Assembly: GCA_019721075.1 (NCBI GenBank)
Contig: JAHEAD010000002.1
Coordinates: 152,949 to 216,948, forward strand
Origin: Candidatus Sysuiplasma jiujiangense
GTDB taxonomy: Archaea > Thermoplasmatota > Thermoplasmata > Sysuiplasmatales > Sysuiplasmataceae
DNA: 64,000 nucleotides
Reading direction: 5' to 3'
Below are positions 27,135 through 35,557 of the stretch, in pieces. A program made the translations under genes and the position numbers. Numbering within the stretch: position 1 is the first letter of the stretch; every line of letters starts with the position of its first letter. The notes under the pieces were generated by a model. That model ran no database searches, was not told the origin of the DNA, and saw only the letters and a program-made list of their open reading frames with translations.

Positions 27135-28055
27135 ATGACGAAACTTATCGAATGCGTCCCCAATTTCAGCGAAGGGAGAAGGAAGGATGTTGTCTCACTG
27201 ATCGAACAGGCAATCAGGACAGTACCGAATATCATGTTCATGGGTTCGGAAATGGATGCCTCACACAACAGGAGTGTCCTGACATTTGTTGGACCGCCGG
27301 ACAGCGTTGCGGAGGCTGCGTTCAGGGCATGCAAGAAGGCCTCCGAACTTATTGATATGAACATGCACAGGGGAGAGCATCCGAGAATCGGCGCCACTGA
27401 TGTCATACCATTCATACCGGTCTCGGACTCCAGCATAGGAGAATGCATCGAACTTTCGGAGAAGGTGGCCATGAGAATAGCAGAAGAACTCGGCATACCC
27501 ACATACCTGTATGAAAGTGCCGCCCGGAGGCCAAACAGGAAGAACCTTTCAGACATAAGAAAGGGGGAATACGAGGGCCTGAAGGAGGCAGTTCTCACTG
27601 ACGAGTCCAGAAGACCGGATTTCGGCGGCCCGGAGCTACACCCTACGGCAGGTGCCACAGTAGTCGGTGCCAGGCCGGTTCTTGTTGCATACAACGTCTA
27701 TCTCAAGACACCGGACGTTGCTGTTGCGAAGAGGATAGCCGGCAAAGTAAGGGAAAGGAACGGCGGCCTTCCCGGCGTGAAGGCTCTCGGCTTCTTCATA
27801 TCCGAGAGGAATATGGCGCAGGTCTCGATGAATCTCACGGACCTGACAAAGACATCCACGCTCGCTGCATATGAGAAGGTCAGCGAGGAGGCGGTGCTGG
27901 AAGGGGTGGAGGTCGCAGGGAGCGAAATTGTCGGTCTGCTGCCGATCGCAGAGATTGCGGGTGTTGCAGTGCAAAAACTTAAGCTGATGGACTTCAATAG
28001 AAGCCAGATAATCGAGTCAAGGCTGCTTGACCTGATACTTGAAAAAGGTGAATAG
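27135..28055 (+). CDS. ftcD: Glutamate formiminotransferase
   Basis: IECVPNFSEGRR, HNRSV, HRGEHPRIGATDVIPF, QVSMNL, SEIVGL. Confidence 0.95.
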   Translation: MTKLIECVPNFSEGRRKDVVSLIEQAIRTVPNIMFMGSEMDASHNRSVLTFVGPPDSVAEAAFRACKKASELIDMNMHRGEHPRIGATDVIPFIPVSDSSIGECIELSEKVAMRIAEELGIPTYLYESAARRPNRKNLSDIRKGEYEGLKEAVLTDESRRPDFGGPELHPTAGATVVGARPVLVAYNVYLKTPDVAVAKRIAGKVRERNGGLPGVKALGFFISERNMAQVSMNLTDLTKTSTLAAYEKVSEEAVLEGVEVAGSEIVGLLPIAEIAGVAVQKLKLMDFNRSQIIESRLLDLILEKGE

Positions 28056-28057
28056 CA

Positions 28058-28654
28058 TTGTCATACTCTGAAAAGAAGATAGCGGAATTCGTAAAGGAAC
28101 TCTCATCACCCTCGCCGACACCAGGAGGCGGTTCCGCATCCGCGATAGTCGCATCGGCAGCTGCGGCGCTGATTGTCATGGACTGCAATCTGACACTGGG
28201 AAAGGAGAAGTACGAGGCCATACAGGATAATGTCTCCGAAATCAGGCGCAGGAGCCAGAAGCTCTGCGGCCTGCTCCTGAAGCTTGCAGACCGTGATGCA
28301 AAAAGTTTTGATGCCGTAATGAAGGCGGTAGGGCTGCCGAAGGACACGGAGCTGAGAAAGCTGAAGAGGTATGAGCGGATCCAGAGCGCCCTCAAGCATG
28401 CCACAGAAGTACCGCTTGAGATAATGCAGCTCTGTTCAGAACTCCAGAAGATGGCCAACTACATGGCCGAAAAGGGCAACAGGAACAGCAGATCCGATGC
28501 GATGGTCGGCTGCATATTTGCCGAAGCGGCACTGAAAGGGGCCTACGAGAACCTGGAGATCAATCTTGAATCGATCAAGGACACGGCCTTTGTCGATGAA
28601 ATGAACAGGAAGGTGGCGGAACTGCTCCGATCGCCGCCTCAGTACGTGCGGTAG
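28058..28654 (+). CDS. Formiminotetrahydrofolate cyclodeaminase / cyclohydrolase domain protein
   Basis: SSPSPTPGGGSASA, DAKSF, ATEVPL, GNRNSRSD, NLEINL; TTG start with GGTGA SD. Confidence 0.92.
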   Translation: MSYSEKKIAEFVKELSSPSPTPGGGSASAIVASAAAALIVMDCNLTLGKEKYEAIQDNVSEIRRRSQKLCGLLLKLADRDAKSFDAVMKAVGLPKDTELRKLKRYERIQSALKHATEVPLEIMQLCSELQKMANYMAEKGNRNSRSDAMVGCIFAEAALKGAYENLEINLESIKDTAFVDEMNRKVAELLRSPPQYVR

Positions 28655-28742: not shown

Positions 28743-29300
28743 ATGCTGACAGTTGTTGTTGTCCTGGGATGCAGACCGGATGGGAACAGGCCCACCCCGG
28801 AGCTTACCAGAAGGGTGAAACATGGTGTGGAGACTGCCATGCGTGCGTCGAAAAGGGGGGAGAGCATGCTTCTCTTTTCAGGCGGAAAAACATCCGGGAC
28901 AGAAAGCGAAGCTTCCATCATGCACAGGGATTATGAACTGAACTACAGGGATATAGCCATACCATCCATACTTGAGAACAGGAGCCTTGACACCATCGGG
29001 AATGCGTATTTCAGCGCCAGGATACTGAAAAGACTTGAGTACGGCAGGATTGTCGTCGTGACTAGCCCGTTCCACGTTCCCCGCTCGAAGTATCTATTCT
29101 CGTTCATCCTCGGGAGGAGGGTGGGAAGCTCCACATTCGGCGCTGTTCCCGGAACCGTTCCGAAGGAGGAGAAAGCGCCCCTTGAGATGGCAAAGCATCT
29201 CTTTGCCGGCGTGAAAAGCGGCGACCTTGATGCAGTATGGGGAAGAATGCGCAGGATGCATCCATACTATATGCCGGGCAGCCTGAAGGCCCGCGCATAG
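28743..29300 (+). CDS. YdcF/DUF218 (ElyC/SanA-like) protein
   Basis: VVLG, FSGG, SEA..M, ENRSLDTIGNA, VTSPFHVPRS. Confidence 0.88.
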   Translation: MLTVVVVLGCRPDGNRPTPELTRRVKHGVETAMRASKRGESMLLFSGGKTSGTESEASIMHRDYELNYRDIAIPSILENRSLDTIGNAYFSARILKRLEYGRIVVVTSPFHVPRSKYLFSFILGRRVGSSTFGAVPGTVPKEEKAPLEMAKHLFAGVKSGDLDAVWGRMRRMHPYYMPGSLKARA

Positions 29301-29355: not shown

Positions 29356-32300
29356 TCACTTGTGCGCTATAGCCAGTCCGCATTCGCATCTGTCCGTCCT
29401 TGTCGAACAGACATCGTGGTACTCCCTGCCGCACCTGCACTCGTAAACTTCCATCCCCTCCCGTATCCTGCCCCTGCAGTACTGGCAGATACGTACAGCC
29501 TGAATGCTCCCTTTATCCATTCTGAACAGCTTGACGGTGACACTTTCGCCTTCGTCCAGGAGGTTTTTCGACCTGACCTCGACATTTACTTCGCCCGTTG
29601 CCCCTGACGAAATACCTATTCTCCTTTCCTGTCCGGGTTTGAGATTTCCAATGGTCTCGTTCATCCTGAATGTGCTGCCGCTGACGGTCGAGGTGACCTG
29701 GAGCGCAACTGCCTTCCCTGCATTAACAATCCTGACCGAAGCACCGCCCGCCTCATTCGCAGCCCGGATCTTGAGACGCGGAATCAGCGACTGCCTTGTT
29801 CTTTTCAGCTCCTCAAGTATCAGTGTTGCCTGTGCTGCCGAACTGTCCGGCAGGTCGGCATAAATTGCATTCAGCCTGCCATCAATATTTCTGAGATTCA
29901 CACCTGCATTGCGCAGCTCCCTGGAAATGCGCGCGATTTCGTCCTTCAATGGAGCCAGAGCCTTAAAAATCTCGGCCTTGCGGGCCGCATTCTCCCTGGT
30001 CTTCCGGAGATATGATATTGCCTCTTCATACCTCTGCTCTGAGACTAGCTCTTCTATTTTCCGATCTGCCTCAAGTCTGAGATCGTCCGGATAGCCAATG
30101 CCGTCCACAGCCCTCGACAGCGCCCCCTGAAGGGTCTCTATCATGACAAATGAGATATCCTTCAGCGCCGGACCGCTTATCGAGAGGGCATCAAGCATGT
30201 GACCTTCCATCATATTCTTCCTGGCCTGCTCCACCATACCCGGCCTGAATTCGATTCCGAGCTCCTCAGCTGCGGCAGTGGCCTTCTCAAGCCCGTTGAG
30301 GGCTGATACGCTTTCAGCCTGCAGCTTTTCCGAAGATGCTGCGTCAATTGAGGAAAGCAGCGAGAAAGCGTCTGATGTTCTGCCTTCCCTCAGGAATTCC
30401 CTGGCTCTCTGCAGGTCGTCAAACCAGCCCTTTTCTGAGACGCCTGCCTCGTTGTAGCTCTGAAGCCTCTTCTCGGTTTCGTCAACCCTTTCCCTGAGCA
30501 GCCTGACTTCAGACAGCATATCGTCCAGTATCTGCTCAATCCTGATCCCCTTCTCTATGACTTCACGGTATTTCTTTGCCGAAAGAAGGGATCTTATGGA
30601 TTCTGTCTCCTCCTTCAGGCTCTTTATCTCTACGCCTTGTTTCGCCGCCGATTCTATTTTTTCATTTGAAATATCAAGGGTGCGTTCTGCCATTTCCTTC
30701 TGGAGTTTCAGCCTGTCGTTCAGGTCCTTGATTTCAAGAAGGCCATCGATTGCGTTTTCGCTTCCCTGCTGGATTGCATCTGCAATTACGTCTATTTTCT
30801 TCCTTATCTCGGTCAGCCTGTCCTCAGAAATCAGCGACGTGACGGAAGCGGAATAGCGTTTCAGGAGTCCGGTACCGGAGGTTTTCAGCGACATGATGCA
30901 TATCTCGGTGCATTTCTGGGCTGTCTGCAGCGAGAGCAGATGCTGTTCATTGCTCAGCAGTGTCTTGGACTGCCTGAGCATTCCGATTGCACTGCCGTCT
31001 ATTATTCCGAGTTCGTCGAGCTTCTCGACAAAATTCTCCGCCTTACTGATGGCGTTTGCAGTCTCGGTCACCGCATTACGCGAGAAATTTAGTTCCTTGT
31101 CTGCAAGAGAGATACTGCTGAACGCCTGTTCATACTGCCCCCTGGCCAGAAGTTCTCTTGCCCTGTCGAGTCTCGATTCCACGAGCTTTACGTCTACGCC
31201 CTCCATTTCGGCCCTTGCGCTCTCCGCCGAGACCGATTTGACAGCACTTTCTATGGCATTCTGAATCACCGATTCAATATCGGCGGTTGCCTTTCTGCTG
31301 GCCAGAAGTGCGTCGTAATAGTTTCTTTCGCGCATGAGATTGCTGATGCTCACCCTCGTGTCTTCGAATTCCTGCACATCCAGGGAAAGGGAGCCCGCAA
31401 GCTGAATCAACCCTTTGAGTCTGATTATTTCCTTCGGTGCGAGAACGGATGACATTCCCCTGTCCTCCATCTCGAGAGCTTCCGATATTGCAGCGCTTGC
31501 TGAGAGATAATCGAAATGCTTAAGAGCGCTTCTTGCCGAGTTAAGCCGATCTTCCAGCCCTTCGATTGATAAATTGAGCTTCTTCGACTCCTGATACTGC
31601 CTTTCGGCCTTCTCCAGCTTTTCGGCAATCTCATCAACATGGCGAAGTTTTCCCTGTATCTCATCGTTCGCAAGGGAAACCATCCTGTTGGCCGTCTCGA
31701 AGTCCTCGAATTTGAGCGCGGCTCTTGCCCTTCCTATCAGGTTGTAGCCGTATCCTATTTCGATCTTCTTTCTCCTTGCAGTCGAAACCATTGCCATCAG
31801 ATCCGACATGACTTTGGAAAAGTAATCGGCGATAAGGCCGTAAATTATGTCGTGCGCCTCGCCTGCAGTTTTCAGGGCACCCTCCAGATCAATCGCCAAC
31901 TGTCTTTCCGCAGATTCCAGCATTGTGGTCGCCGATTTGACTGCAAGATTCGGGAAGATGGAGAGCAGGCGCCTCGATCTCTGTATAAGCGACTGCACCC
32001 TGAATACATCACCATTGCCTGACCAGTCCACAATATCCTTCGCAGTGCAGGCAGATCTGTAGTAGCTGTGATCCGCCTGGAGTTGTTTGGCCTCCTCCAC
32101 CAGTTTTCCGAGTCTCTCCTTCATGTTGCCGGTCGCCTGCTCGGTGCACTTTTTTGCTCTTTCCAGCCAGCTGTTGTTCATCTGCAGCAGCCTTGCCTCA
32201 ATCTCGGTGTCCATCCTGTTGGTAATCTCAATGCATTTGCTGTACTCTGAATTCCTGACAAATGAAACAGCGTTTTCCAGCTGCTCGTTCAGTTCGAGCG

Positions 32301-33756
32301 TTTCTGCGCCGAGATATTCGAGTGCTGAAATCTTCCTGTCGAGTGCGTCAATCTGGCTCGTGGAAAATGTCTCCAGCATCTGGTGCATGCTCTTGAGGAG
32401 GGATGTGGACGCTTCGATAAATTCTTCAAACTTCTTTTCCTCAAACTTGCGCTTTGCGTCGGCATACTTGATGCCTATGTCCACCGAATTGCTTATAAGG
32501 GATATGAGAACAGAATATTCATTTTCCATTTTTGAGAGAAGCTCATCGGCGCGGTTCATGCGCTCCGAAAGCTCTTTGGACTCCTCATTTGCAAGTTCGG
32601 CCATCCTGACCGCTTCCTCAAATCTTCTTTTCTTTACGAGCTCCCTCACCTCATTCAGCCTCTGGTTTATGCCGGTGAGATCGGCTCCTCTTTTCATCGC
32701 CTCTGCAATATACTTCCTGCTGTTGAATAAGACCCTGGCAATGTAGTCATATTTCGCCTTCTCGAATTCTGCTTCGAACGACTTCAGCGAGGAATAGGCT
32801 TTTTCAAAATTGCCTTCTGAAAGGAGTCGCTCGATTTCCTTGATCTTCAGAGACGACGACGATGCAACAGCCTCGTTGAGCGTGCTGTTTGAAAGCTCGC
32901 TCCGGATGGTTTTTATGTTTGCCTCGAAAGCCTTCCTCAGCCTCTGGTCCACATCCCTCCGCAGGGACAGAAGTAGAGACTCTAACTCACCAAATTTCTG
33001 TTCCGGGGGGAGTGCCTGGATTGATGCAAGACGGTCTTTCATCGATGATGTGCCAAGACCGAACAGACGCGATATCTCAATTCTGGCGGATATATCCTTG
33101 ATCTGCGCATCTGCGTTCTTCCTGAACTGCGAGACTATCGAAACGCCTGCCTCCTCGAGCAGCCGGAACGCATTTTCATAATTCCCGGAACTCATTTCAT
33201 TCCTGGCGCTGGAAAGCAGGCTATCGACACCTTCAATTGCAAGGCCGTGCGACTTTGCCTCCACTATCGTTCTCTGGACTTTAGAAAATTCATTGGAATA
33301 CAGTTCGGATAAATTCTTTTCCTCCCTCGACCATACCTCTGTAATTGCTGCGTCCGCACTCTCGTACTCCTTTCTTGCAAGGAGCATGCGCACCTGCTCA
33401 ATGTTCTCGCCGACCATGCCGATGTTTACCCCCTTCGAGCGGAGGAATTCAAGGATTCTTGCAGTTGAATCTATCCTTGAACTGAATATCTTCTGAAGTT
33501 CCTCGTTGAGGCCGTCTATCGCAACGGAGGCGGCAGAGATGCATTCCCTGTACTCCCTTGCGTTGAAACTGACTTCAGCCTTCTTTGAATTCTCCTGGAA
33601 GTCCTTTGAGGAAAATCCGATTTTTTCGCAGAGCAGCGCAAGTGAGGACAGCTCCCTCATCTTGGCCTCGGCGTCCTCCTTCTCCTGGGCTATTTCCTTC
33701 GCCTTGTCGGCAAGCTGCTTGCCGAGTTTCATGTTGCCGAAATAGTTTCCTGTCAA
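29356..33756 (-). CDS. Giant alpha-helical repeat protein with C-terminal Ig-like and RING-like Zn-binding domains
   Basis: 1466 aa; roughly 20 helical repeats of about 60 aa; C-terminus CQYC-x12-CRC-x4-H-x2-C-x6-CEC; TTG start with GGTGA SD; no TM or signal peptide seen. Confidence 0.85.
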   Translation of the reverse strand: MTGNYFGNMKLGKQLADKAKEIAQEKEDAEAKMRELSSLALLCEKIGFSSKDFQENSKKAEVSFNAREYRECISAASVAIDGLNEELQKIFSSRIDSTARILEFLRSKGVNIGMVGENIEQVRMLLARKEYESADAAITEVWSREEKNLSELYSNEFSKVQRTIVEAKSHGLAIEGVDSLLSSARNEMSSGNYENAFRLLEEAGVSIVSQFRKNADAQIKDISARIEISRLFGLGTSSMKDRLASIQALPPEQKFGELESLLLSLRRDVDQRLRKAFEANIKTIRSELSNSTLNEAVASSSSLKIKEIERLLSEGNFEKAYSSLKSFEAEFEKAKYDYIARVLFNSRKYIAEAMKRGADLTGINQRLNEVRELVKKRRFEEAVRMAELANEESKELSERMNRADELLSKMENEYSVLISLISNSVDIGIKYADAKRKFEEKKFEEFIEASTSLLKSMHQMLETFSTSQIDALDRKISALEYLGAETLELNEQLENAVSFVRNSEYSKCIEITNRMDTEIEARLLQMNNSWLERAKKCTEQATGNMKERLGKLVEEAKQLQADHSYYRSACTAKDIVDWSGNGDVFRVQSLIQRSRRLLSIFPNLAVKSATTMLESAERQLAIDLEGALKTAGEAHDIIYGLIADYFSKVMSDLMAMVSTARRKKIEIGYGYNLIGRARAALKFEDFETANRMVSLANDEIQGKLRHVDEIAEKLEKAERQYQESKKLNLSIEGLEDRLNSARSALKHFDYLSASAAISEALEMEDRGMSSVLAPKEIIRLKGLIQLAGSLSLDVQEFEDTRVSISNLMRERNYYDALLASRKATADIESVIQNAIESAVKSVSAESARAEMEGVDVKLVESRLDRARELLARGQYEQAFSSISLADKELNFSRNAVTETANAISKAENFVEKLDELGIIDGSAIGMLRQSKTLLSNEQHLLSLQTAQKCTEICIMSLKTSGTGLLKRYSASVTSLISEDRLTEIRKKIDVIADAIQQGSENAIDGLLEIKDLNDRLKLQKEMAERTLDISNEKIESAAKQGVEIKSLKEETESIRSLLSAKKYREVIEKGIRIEQILDDMLSEVRLLRERVDETEKRLQSYNEAGVSEKGWFDDLQRAREFLREGRTSDAFSLLSSIDAASSEKLQAESVSALNGLEKATAAAEELGIEFRPGMVEQARKNMMEGHMLDALSISGPALKDISFVMIETLQGALSRAVDGIGYPDDLRLEADRKIEELVSEQRYEEAISYLRKTRENAARKAEIFKALAPLKDEIARISRELRNAGVNLRNIDGRLNAIYADLPDSSAAQATLILEELKRTRQSLIPRLKIRAANEAGGASVRIVNAGKAVALQVTSTVSGSTFRMNETIGNLKPGQERRIGISSGATGEVNVEVRSKNLLDEGESVTVKLFRMDKGSIQAVRICQYCRGRIREGMEVYECRCGREYHDVCSTRTDRCECGLAIAHK

Positions 33757-34019
33757 CTGGGCTTCACCGGCGTATATATATCATAATGAGTCAGCACAAC
33801 AGCTCGGATTTCCGTTCATTCCGTATAAATATAATGACGTAGTTACGCCGCCTGATTTTCAGCCAGCACTGCCTTTCGGGACGCAGGTGCTGGGCTGACT
33901 GCCGAAACTGCGTGATCCCGTATGGCTTCCAGGCTTCCTGGAGCGAGACATGTTCCGTCGCCGCAGAGGCTGCTGACATGTGGAAAAGATTATTCAACCG
34001 AAGCGTGATACCGGAGCCT

Positions 34020-34859
34020 ATGGGATTGGATGCACTTGGATTGAGGATGCCTACGGGCGTGTCTGATTTTGACTCCATAATAGACGGCGGACTTCCTGCC
34101 GGTTCCGTTGTTCTTCTGCTTGGAGACGTAGGAAGCGGTTTCGTTGAATTTGCATACACATCCGCCGCCAAAATTTCGCTGGCAATGGAGAGACCTGCAT
34201 CGATGAGCTATCTTATGGGTGACAGAGCTGCCGCTGGCAGGCTGCCGGAAAACATTCATTACGTCACTTTCTTCAAACCCAGGGAGGAAATACTTCAGGA
34301 AATATTGTTTTCATTCAACGAGGAGTTCCACGGGGCATTTGAAAAGAACGTGAAATTCACTGACTTCTCTGAGTATTATTTTGAGAAGTCAGTGGTGCCT
34401 GCATCGTGGGTGGACAGGCAGGGAGGCCTGCTGAGAAAAGGCTCTTCCTCGCTCATAAACTCGATTGTCGATTTTCTTGACAGGCAGGCGCAGGGCAGCT
34501 TCATAATCATTGATTCACTGACAGATCTTCTCCTGAGCGAAAGCATAGAACTGATGGATATTGTCGCGATGCTCCGCGGGATACAGCGCATGTCAAAAAA
34601 ATGGAAAGGCGTCATCTACCTCCTGCTGACTGAGGGCATACTTGAGAAGAGGAAGGAGCAGATGATAATAGACAGCGTTGACGGCGTGTTTGTCTTCGAA
34701 TGGAGCAAGAATACCAGCAGCAGCAAGAGGCAGCGATACATCTACATATCGAAGTTTGTGAGCCTGATGCCGCATCTCGACGAGCAGAGAGTGGCCAGAT
34801 TTGCAACAACTCTGACATCCCAGAGCGGCCTCGTGGTAATAGATACGGAGAGGATATGA
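34020..34859 (+). CDS. KaiC/RAD55-like RecA-fold protein, predicted inactive ATPase
   Basis: PTGVSDFDSIIDGGLPAGSVVLLLG start and IIIDSL retained; Walker A reads GDVGSGFVEF (no Lys); start uncertain (33978/34020/34047). Confidence 0.8.
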   Translation: MGLDALGLRMPTGVSDFDSIIDGGLPAGSVVLLLGDVGSGFVEFAYTSAAKISLAMERPASMSYLMGDRAAAGRLPENIHYVTFFKPREEILQEILFSFNEEFHGAFEKNVKFTDFSEYYFEKSVVPASWVDRQGGLLRKGSSSLINSIVDFLDRQAQGSFIIIDSLTDLLLSESIELMDIVAMLRGIQRMSKKWKGVIYLLLTEGILEKRKEQMIIDSVDGVFVFEWSKNTSSSKRQRYIYISKFVSLMPHLDEQRVARFATTLTSQSGLVVIDTERI

Positions 34860-35557
34860 TGGCCTCCGTACAGCCCACAGGGATAGAGGGACTGGATGAC
34901 ATGCTGGGAGGGGGCATACCTGGAGGTGCCATTGTTGTCATACTGGGGTCATTCGGCACGGGCAAGACGACAATGAGCATCCAGTATCTTCTGAAGGGAC
35001 TGAGTTCGGGCGAAAAATGCATTTACATTTCTCTTGAGGAGGACGAGAAATCAATTGTAAAGAACGCTCTGACCTATGGATGGAGACTCGGCGATTACAC
35101 CGGTAACGGAATGCTCTCGATAATCAAGCTTGAGCCGTCAGATGCCAAAACAACGCTTGAACGAGTGAAGAGCGAATTTCCCCGGTTCATCCGTGAATTC
35201 GGCGCAAGCAGGGTCGTAATAGACTCGATCTCGCTGCTGACCATGCTTTACGAGAGCGAATCGGAGAAGAGAACAGGCCTTTTCAACCTGTGCGACCTGA
35301 TAAGGCAGTCCGGTGCAGGCGCTCTTCTGACTTCGGAAGTAAATGAAAACCACCCCTCTTCCTCCAGAGACGGAATGGTGGAATATACGGCGGACGGCGT
35401 AATACTTCTCCAGAGCACGGAGTCGAAGGACGCTTCTGAGCAACAGCTTACGCTCAGGGTCGTAAAAATGAGGGGTGTGGCCCATTCGAGGAGGATAAAG
35501 CCTTACAGCATTACGAGAGAAGGGATAGTTGTTCATTCCGGATCGGAGATATTCTGA
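34856..35557 (+). CDS. KaiC/RAD55-family ATPase (single domain, intact motifs)
   Basis: TGIEGLDDMLGGGIP, GSFGTGKT, SLEE, VIDSI, EYTADGVI, KMRG; ATGA overlap. Confidence 0.92.
   Translation: MMASVQPTGIEGLDDMLGGGIPGGAIVVILGSFGTGKTTMSIQYLLKGLSSGEKCIYISLEEDEKSIVKNALTYGWRLGDYTGNGMLSIIKLEPSDAKTTLERVKSEFPRFIREFGASRVVIDSISLLTMLYESESEKRTGLFNLCDLIRQSGAGALLTSEVNENHPSSSRDGMVEYTADGVILLQSTESKDASEQQLTLRVVKMRGVAHSRRIKPYSITREGIVVHSGSEIF

Follow-up and report, generated by a model that had tools for sequence, protein, structure and literature searches.

Introduction

The ubiquitin operon of Caldiarchaeum contains a small RING protein and, to our knowledge, the RING proteins associated to date with the eukaryote-like ubiquitin cascades of archaea are small ones. 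Helical-bundle rods are described from other systems. In EzrA (4uy3/4uxv) and the N-domain of Borrelia BB0323 (6rjw), consecutive three-helix bundles are joined by a helix that ends one bundle and opens the following one; the spectrin repeat has a length of about 106 amino acids; and Ebh/EbhA of S. aureus and BibA of group B Streptococcus, which are giant proteins secreted to the bacterial surface, contain many small three-helix bundles linked by long helices. In this study, we describe a gene for a giant rod-like protein with a RING-type zinc finger in Candidatus Sysuiplasma jiujiangense (Thermoplasmatota). It lies in a stretch of 64,000 nucleotides (assembly GCA_019721075.1, contig JAHEAD010000002.1, positions 152,949 to 216,948 of the forward strand), the whole of which is called the window hereafter.

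According to structural models, the rod of the giant protein is built in the manner of EzrA and BB0323, and its many small bundles linked by long helices are also reminiscent of Ebh/EbhA and BibA. Its unit of 56-64 residues (about 62) is, however, much shorter than a spectrin repeat, and unlike EzrA, which has an N-terminal membrane anchor, the giant protein carries no transmembrane anchor. It differs from the bacterial surface proteins in that it lacks an export signal and has domains of cytoplasmic type. The C-terminal zinc finger resembles Prok-RING_1 and the small RING proteins of archaeal ubiquitin operons in its C4HC3 order and short loops, but it caps a rod of 1400 residues, and the window gene is located outside such an operon. 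In comparison with RING-H2 ligases, which have C-x-H-x2-H at ligands 3-5, the finger has C-x-C-x4-H, with a much shorter loop between ligands 6 and 7.

We tentatively propose, with somewhat less than even confidence, that the giant protein is a rod-shaped scaffold whose tip recruits, or works with, an E2 charged with a ubiquitin-like protein (Ubl). If the tip is an active E3, the protein would be a prokaryotic giant scaffold ligase and a concrete candidate for a link between ubiquitin-like signalling and archaeal cell division; if the tip is inactive, the family would still be that of an unnamed, widespread repeat protein.

Domain Architecture of the Giant Protein

The giant gene coincides exactly with an open reading frame of 1466 amino acids that a first-pass annotation of the window had delimited, and is encoded on the minus strand. 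Its predicted product has a mass of 164 kDa and a pI of 5.6, and the protein as a whole showed no Pfam, NCBIfam or PDB sequence match above threshold. The gene and the parts of its product are as follows.

29356..33756, minus strand: giant gene, 1466 codons plus the stop codon (29356-29358), with a TTG start codon at 33756-33754
33631..33756, minus strand: conserved N-terminal segment, residues 1-42, of which residues 1-6 are unstructured, followed by the first long helix
29776..33630, minus strand: rod of 21 tandem units of about 62 amino acids, residues 43-1327, delimited from models, self-comparison, a unit hidden Markov model (HMM) and structural matches
31582..32151, minus strand: units 9-11 of the rod, residues 536-725, the best-conserved stretch among orthologs and the most degenerate as repeats
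29497..29775, minus strand: Ig-like beta-sandwich, residues 1328-1420, eight strands in the model
29359..29496, minus strand: C4HC3 binuclear zinc finger of the Prok-RING_1 type, residues 1421-1466, with the ligand motif at 1424-1459

Structural predictions consisted of two AlphaFold models, covering residues 1-760 (mean pLDDT 86.8) and 700-1466 (mean pLDDT 88.1), with an input of 14 sequences only. In these models, 22 helices of about 40 residues, one starting every 56-64 residues, alternate with 21 helices of about 15 residues. Each rod unit is composed of a short helix, a loop and a helix of about 40 residues, the last being common to the neighboring three-helix bundles. Residues 1-7 had pLDDT values below 50, and the pTM of 0.40-0.47 means that the long-range shape of the rod is not predicted by the models. 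The first-pass annotation had described roughly 20 repeats of about 60 amino acids followed by a beta-sandwich-like segment, in good agreement with the 21 units of about 62 amino acids obtained from self-comparison and models and with the eight-strand sandwich modelled at residues 1328-1420. In a structure search, this Ig-like domain matched the C-terminal domain of a transglutaminase (8oxv_A; Z 10.2, rmsd 2.5 A, 84 residues) as well as macroglobulin (MG), GH2 and FN3 domains. A CARDB match at E <= 0.1 was found in five of 15 tips of the family, the window protein not being among them.

The Zinc Finger at the Tip

The predicted zinc ligands, C1424-x2-C1427-x12-C1440-x-C1442-x4-H1447-x2-C1450-x6-C1457-x-C1459, have a spacing compatible with a cross-brace. 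The pattern is the one given at the outset by the annotation (CQYC-x12-CRC-x4-H-x2-C-x6-CEC), and all eight ligands are invariant in 14/14 orthologs. They are also kept across the 15 tips, which include distant relatives, except for the fourth ligand in one of these (L050). A match to Prok-RING_1 (PF14446) at E <= 0.1 was obtained for 12 of the 15 tips, with a best E of 2.8e-16, and a distant homolog (P0015) scored 41.6 bits, as compared with the Pfam cut-off of 29.1. When a profile of the tips was compared with the PDB, RING-H2 E3 ligases (RNF165/ARK2C, Arkadia and RLIM) came first, at marginal E values of 5.5e-4 to 1e-2, followed by C1 and PHD domains. In the zinc-free model, the finger has two short strands and a helix (residues 1437-1452; pLDDT of 61-76); the coverage of the structure searches ended before the finger.

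Association with E1, E2 and Ubl Genes

The first-pass annotation had suggested an E3-like tip and proposed a look for E1, E2 and Ubl genes in the genome, and these genes are present. Contig C34 (L062 5969-8011, minus strand) carries one complete, eukaryote-like operon encoding ThiF/E1 (268 aa), a Ubl (85 aa), UQ_con/E2 (156 aa) and JAB (180 aa). The Ubl ends in ...PEGGQWQSL, having a C-terminal extension after GG, and the E2 has an HPN motif and the catalytic Cys. No RING gene was found inside this operon.

Relatives of the giant protein are encoded directly within such operons. In two loci (L051 and L052), ThiF/E1 is followed by a giant of 3155-3183 aa with the finger, Ubl, UQ_con/E2 and JAB, in this order, and the Ubl of L051 ends in ...PDPEGGG. 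The E2 proteins of these two operons are 38-39% identical to the E2 of the Sysuiplasma genome, and the Ubl proteins 27-29% identical to its Ubl. Apart from members of its own order, the tips embedded in these operons were the best BLAST matches to the tip of the window protein (E 2.6e-11 and 1.2e-9). An E1 gene abuts the giant gene in L053, and an E2 gene adjoins, by coordinates, the 3' end of the giant gene in five genomes (G004, G016, G050, G068 and G086), the giants of which bear the RING and are about 3100 aa long, or shorter where cut by the contig. In another genome (G096), a gene with an E2 fold lies divergently beside a RING-bearing giant; in its 227-aa product (L045 11823-12503, plus strand), a Ubl-like N-terminal extension precedes an E2 fold that, like UEV proteins, has another residue in place of the catalytic Cys. 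In the same locus, the gene for this Ubl-E2-like protein is followed by a 98-aa CDC48_N-like gene.

UQ_con/E2 was found in 96 of 401 genomes sampled from the phylum. Both the finger type and E2 were present in 53 genomes; 13 had only the finger, 43 only E2 and 292 neither, so that E2 was present in 53/66 genomes with the finger type and in 43/335 without it; this is a count and not a test, since related genomes are not independent. A complex prediction for the E2, the tip with its Ig-like domain and RING, and two zinc ions gave a value of 0.01 against a mark of 0.32, which, as a single run without controls, is neutral on binding.

In the mechanism that we tentatively prefer, the giant protein would be a cytoplasmic rod-shaped scaffold, in which 21 three-helix bundles are joined head to tail via continuous helices and the Ig-like domain and RING-type zinc finger stand at the far end. 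The RING tip would be the docking site for charged E2 from the E1-Ubl-E2-JAB system of the organism itself, encoded on another contig, while the rod, together with the conserved N-terminal peptide, may hold or reach the partner to be modified. The giant protein would thus be a scaffold-type E3 adaptor, with a putative ligase activity toward a presumed substrate.

Several observations weigh against this proposal. The giant gene (contig C12) and the Ubl operon (contig C34) are on separate contigs of the genome. The same genome encodes a second Prok-RING_1-like protein, of 234 aa with double zinc ribbons (17.8 bits, below the cut-off), which could instead serve as the E3 of the Ubl operon. No UQ_con was found in six genomes with RING-bearing giants (0/4 in family f4 and 0/2 in family f6), which are 96-99% complete and two of which are single contigs; the 13 finger-only genomes include all six of them, which suggests that the finger is maintained there without an E2. 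Collinear relatives in four families (L039-L044 and L049) stop after the Ig domain and have no finger, suggesting that the core function of the rod is independent of the finger. The finger of the window protein itself matched PF14446 with 13.8 bits (E 0.056; Pfam cut-off 29.1), and the C-terminal 150-aa piece gave no PF14446 match at E <= 0.1. Its second and fourth knuckles are C-x-C, where the f4 relatives have C-x2-C. The Prok-RING_1 likeness pointed out in the first-pass annotation is supported for the family, as shown by P0015 and the 12 matching tips, and falls below the cut-off for the window finger. Finally, 10 of the 15 tips matched C1 domains, and PHD-like families were matched too.

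The last point raises the possibility that the finger is a C1- or PHD-like binder of lipid, nucleic acid or a modified protein, through which one end of the rod would be held at the membrane or nucleoid. In accordance with this, C1_1 was the family matched by the 10 tips (best E 5.4e-5), C1_2 was matched by nine and PHD-like families by 4-6; RAF C1 domains are among the PDB profile matches (E 0.007-0.03); and SMC and ScpA genes are located just upstream of the giant gene in L050. Binuclear treble-clef families, however, all cross-match at such scores, and Prok-RING_1 gave both the strongest and the most frequent match. RING-H2 ligases rank above C1 domains in the PDB profile search, and the finger type co-occurs with E2. 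We therefore regard a C1- or PHD-like role as quite unlikely.

Association with FtsZ Genes

A second type of gene neighborhood links the family to FtsZ. In four of four f4 genomes, which represent three genera, the giant gene is preceded on its own strand by an FtsZ gene, at a distance of 3-43 nt; the two of these FtsZ genes that were scanned scored 302.7 and 309.6 bits against the TIGR00065 cut-off of 295.2. A finger protein of about 230-290 aa is encoded separately in most genomes whose giants lack the RING; the finger query used detected no stand-alone RING protein in f4. Furthermore, a small Prok-RING_1-like gene is located directly upstream of an FtsZ gene in six of six genomes, namely five with RING-less giants (G305, G314, G164, G389 and G121) and the Sysuiplasma genome, in which the gene of the 234-aa RING protein precedes a same-strand FtsZ gene by 150 nt (L091 1006-2949, minus strand, contig C34).

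These arrangements, together with the f4 genomes in which no E2 is detectable, favor a near-equal rival, namely that the giant protein is a purely structural scaffold of the cytoskeleton or of division. The finger would then be a protein-binding adaptor without ligase activity, and the rod a spacer or ruler tied to filaments of the FtsZ family, comparable to EzrA, a spectrin-like protein that regulates FtsZ. The apparent exchange between RING-less giants accompanied by a small RING protein and the f4 giants, for which none was found, is in line with this role, which we consider a real possibility though still short of an even chance. On the other hand, the giant gene of the Sysuiplasma genome is not near any of its five tubulin-family genes, and the f4 linkage concerns one family and may reflect a single ancestral arrangement. 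The operon-embedded relatives also argue that the finger works with an E2 in at least some lineages. We considered a single FtsZ paralog behind both links and rejected it, since the giant-linked and the small-RING-linked FtsZ proteins fall into different well-supported clades. This difference of paralogs counts against the structural role as well, and it indicates that the link is with the FtsZ family as a whole rather than a single paralog.

Recruitment of a charged E2 and a structural role in division are not mutually exclusive, and the rod family recurs both inside E1-Ubl-E2-JAB operons and beside FtsZ genes. An unlikely but specific combination of the two would be a "ligase on a stick", in which the spectrin-like rod of fixed length sets the RING at a set distance from an anchoring N-terminus and couples the E1/E2/JAB Ubl system to the FtsZ-based division or cytoskeleton of Thermoplasmatota. 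If this were true, these archaea would control their cytokinesis or cell shape through ubiquitin-like modification by way of a giant scaffold E3.

We also observed two FtsZ-family genes in tandem on contig C23 of the Sysuiplasma genome (37483-39930; L090/L093). The FtsZ of L093 has a very long branch and groups with the giant-adjacent FtsZ paralog of the f4 genomes. Similar tandem pairs are present, by coordinates, in G305, G164, G121 and G389.

Repeats, Fold and Conservation of the Rod

When the alignment of 14 orthologs was compared with itself as a profile, off-diagonal matches were obtained down to E 2.8e-9, at offsets of 62, 124 and 186 residues. The consensus over the 21 aligned units is G(V/I/L)(D/N)...L..A...L..G.(Y/F)..A. 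In a leave-one-unit-out test, 14 of the 21 units scored above all 50 of their own shuffles; units 8, 9, 10, 11, 15, 16 and 21 did not beat all 50 and are thus recognizable by structure only.

The best-conserved parts of the protein among orthologs are the N-terminus, units 9-11 (26-42% invariant positions) and the finger (28%), and the least conserved are units 16-21 (0-12%). The N-terminal segment has 11 invariant positions of 42 (26%) in the 14 orthologs and is collinear by BLAST in seven distant relatives. Units 9, 10 and 11 have 29%, 26% and 42% invariant positions, respectively, as compared with 0-28% in the other units, and no collinear match to them was found in distant relatives. From this pattern of conservation, we regard units 9-11 as a candidate specialized mid-rod site.

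A constant length is a further property of the rod that agrees with a structural scaffold. All 13 orthologs, at 38-96% identity, have 1463-1473 aa, and units are collinear in distant relatives; this strikingly conserved length suggests a molecular ruler. Assuming about 3 nm per bundle, the rod would have an estimated length of roughly 60 nm if it were stiff enough to remain straight.

Single units superposed on small three-helix bundles with rmsd 1.4-2.5 A in a structure search against representatives, for example on AF1782/DUF357 (2oo2_A; Z 10.2, rmsd 2.5 A, 71 residues). For a stretch of two units, the best multi-unit match was EzrA (4uy3_A; Z 9.5, rmsd 3.3 A, 132 residues), and BB0323 (6rjw_A) gave Z 9.0 and rmsd 4.5 A over 147 residues. 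The EzrA match is a point in favor of the structural role, but such Z values are in the range that the search tool gives as common for any helical repeat, and EzrA, unlike the giant protein, is anchored in the membrane. The matches of the modelled rod thus appear to show a common arrangement and not kinship. In a Foldseek search of the C-terminal half against the PDB, nothing matched the rod; the single match at E <= 0.001 was 7pks_g (probability 0.35, TM 0.09), and the others were weak matches to Ig domains. The spectrin-like rod of the first-pass annotation therefore stands as to topology, as represented by the EzrA and BB0323 matches, and does not stand as to the unit, which has 62 and not 106 amino acids; no spectrin or EzrA family was among the Pfam matches of the protein at E <= 1.

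Two further kinds of helical protein were compared. The unit motif L..A...L..G.Y..A resembles the signature of the tetratricopeptide repeat (TPR). TPR, however, forms a two-helix solenoid, whereas the unit is modelled here as a closed three-helix bundle with a common helix of 40 residues, and no TPR family was found among the Pfam matches at E <= 1. An SMC/Rad50 coiled-coil arm was rejected, as the models give short bundles and no two-stranded coiled coil, and no head or hinge family was matched: SMC_N, hinge, AAA and Walker families were all absent at E <= 1 in Pfam, as expected from the first-pass annotation, which had seen neither an SMC Walker motif nor a transmembrane segment.

The remaining structural matches were to surface proteins, namely BibA (6poo_A, Z 8.8 and 8.4), an Ebh-like protein (4kjm_B, Z 8.4) and EbhA (2dgj_B, Z 6.8), and CARDB-like domains are common in surface proteins. 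These would fit a secreted rod adhesin resembling Ebh or BibA. Neither a signal peptide nor a hydrophobic, transmembrane-like segment was found in the giant protein, however, the maximum Kyte-Doolittle mean over 19 aa being 1.16, and the Cys-rich zinc finger and the E1/E2 and FtsZ contexts point to the cytoplasm. We consider an adhesin very improbable.

The Protein Family and Its Spread

The giant protein belongs to an unnamed family found widely in Thermoplasmatota, whose members are giant rods carrying an Ig-like domain and, in most cases, a Prok-RING_1-type finger. Its closest public relatives are in metagenome-assembled genomes of Candidatus Sysuiplasma, Sysuiplasmataceae or Thermoplasmata, and matches to the family profile were found in 78 of the 401 sampled genomes of the phylum. 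The matches include frames of 1396-1623 aa in the same class and of 2780-3465 aa in other classes, most sizes being about 1450-1620 aa or about 3100 aa. Segments of the giant protein are collinear with relatives of 1439-1445 aa (for example, residues 849-939 with 853-943), suggesting that the order of the units is old. With the unit HMM, which was trained on four orthologs, 9-18 units were detected in relatives of 1375-1633 aa and 28-40 units in those of 3134-3183 aa (domain E <= 1), all of these distant relatives being outside the training set.

In the ESM Atlas, we found unnamed Thermoplasmatota clusters of 1517, 1506 and 842 aa, in which 65%, 50% and 19% of the members, respectively, carry Prok-RING_1. 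A search of 1.84 billion representatives with the 62-position unit profile gave 865 clusters at E <= 0.001; at E <= 1e-10 and E <= 1e-30 there were 305 and 100, respectively. The figure of 865 includes cross-matches, since two of 17 top proteins scanned with Pfam (P0072 and P0076) were ordinary TPR proteins. Among the top 147 previously unseen proteins, many of which may be fragments, the C4HC3 pattern was C-terminal in 51, about 100 residues from the end in three and absent in 93. The giant protein is absent from the literature passages covered here, which deal with archaeal ubiquitin, RING and Thermoplasmata/Thermoplasmatota; the founding paper of the prokaryotic RING families lies outside this coverage and may mention members.

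The same repeat was also seen in three proteins of 1882-2388 aa (P0074, P0090 and P0100) that have a DUF5915 end in place of the RING, one of them with CARDB at 1305-1379. Further repeat-bearing proteins reach 7274 and 7686 aa, with 53-56 matched units.

Translation Start, Transcripts and Surrounding Genes

The translation start is taken to be the TTG codon, and not the ATG at residue 9, because GNYFG (residues 3-7) is almost invariant across the 14 orthologs and the N-termini of distant relatives align with the giant protein from position 1 in BLAST. Among the giant genes of 16 relatives (L038-L052), the frames as listed begin with TTG in 11 and GTG in three, at the conserved N-terminus. A putative promoter element, read from the sequence alone, precedes the gene.

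33773..33786, minus strand: TATA-like A/T-rich element, 17-30 nt upstream of the TTG

Five short contigs (152-204 nt) inside the giant gene were found in one mine-drainage metatranscriptome (X1), although contigs of an RNA library are no proof of transcription. Two other metatranscriptomes (X2 and X3) had no match to the gene.

The genes surrounding the giant gene are archaeal, including those for Lon protease, a Hel308-type helicase, Cgi121 and the CCA-adding enzyme, among others. Two overlapping genes of the KaiC/RecA superfamily (33912-34859 and 34700-35557 of the window, both on the plus strand) are divergent from it. In the first, the P-loop is degenerate (GDVGSGF) and similarity to the KaiC profile is confined to the start; the second, with a canonical GTGKT, matches KaiC in full (E 1.9e-59). 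A functional link between this pair and the giant protein was rejected: the genes are adjacent in six of six loci of the Sysuiplasmatales type, but the whole 20-kb region is syntenic there, and the pair was beside the giant gene in none of 16 distant loci. A link to Cgi121 was likewise set aside as synteny; its gene is directly upstream of the giant gene in seven RING-less loci and lies 4 kb away, beside Hel308, in the window. On the other side, a DUF218 gene (28743-29300) is transcribed convergently toward the giant gene, and tandem genes for a glutamate formiminotransferase-like protein (306 aa) and an FTCD_C cyclodeaminase (198 aa) occupy 27135-28654 of the window on the plus strand.

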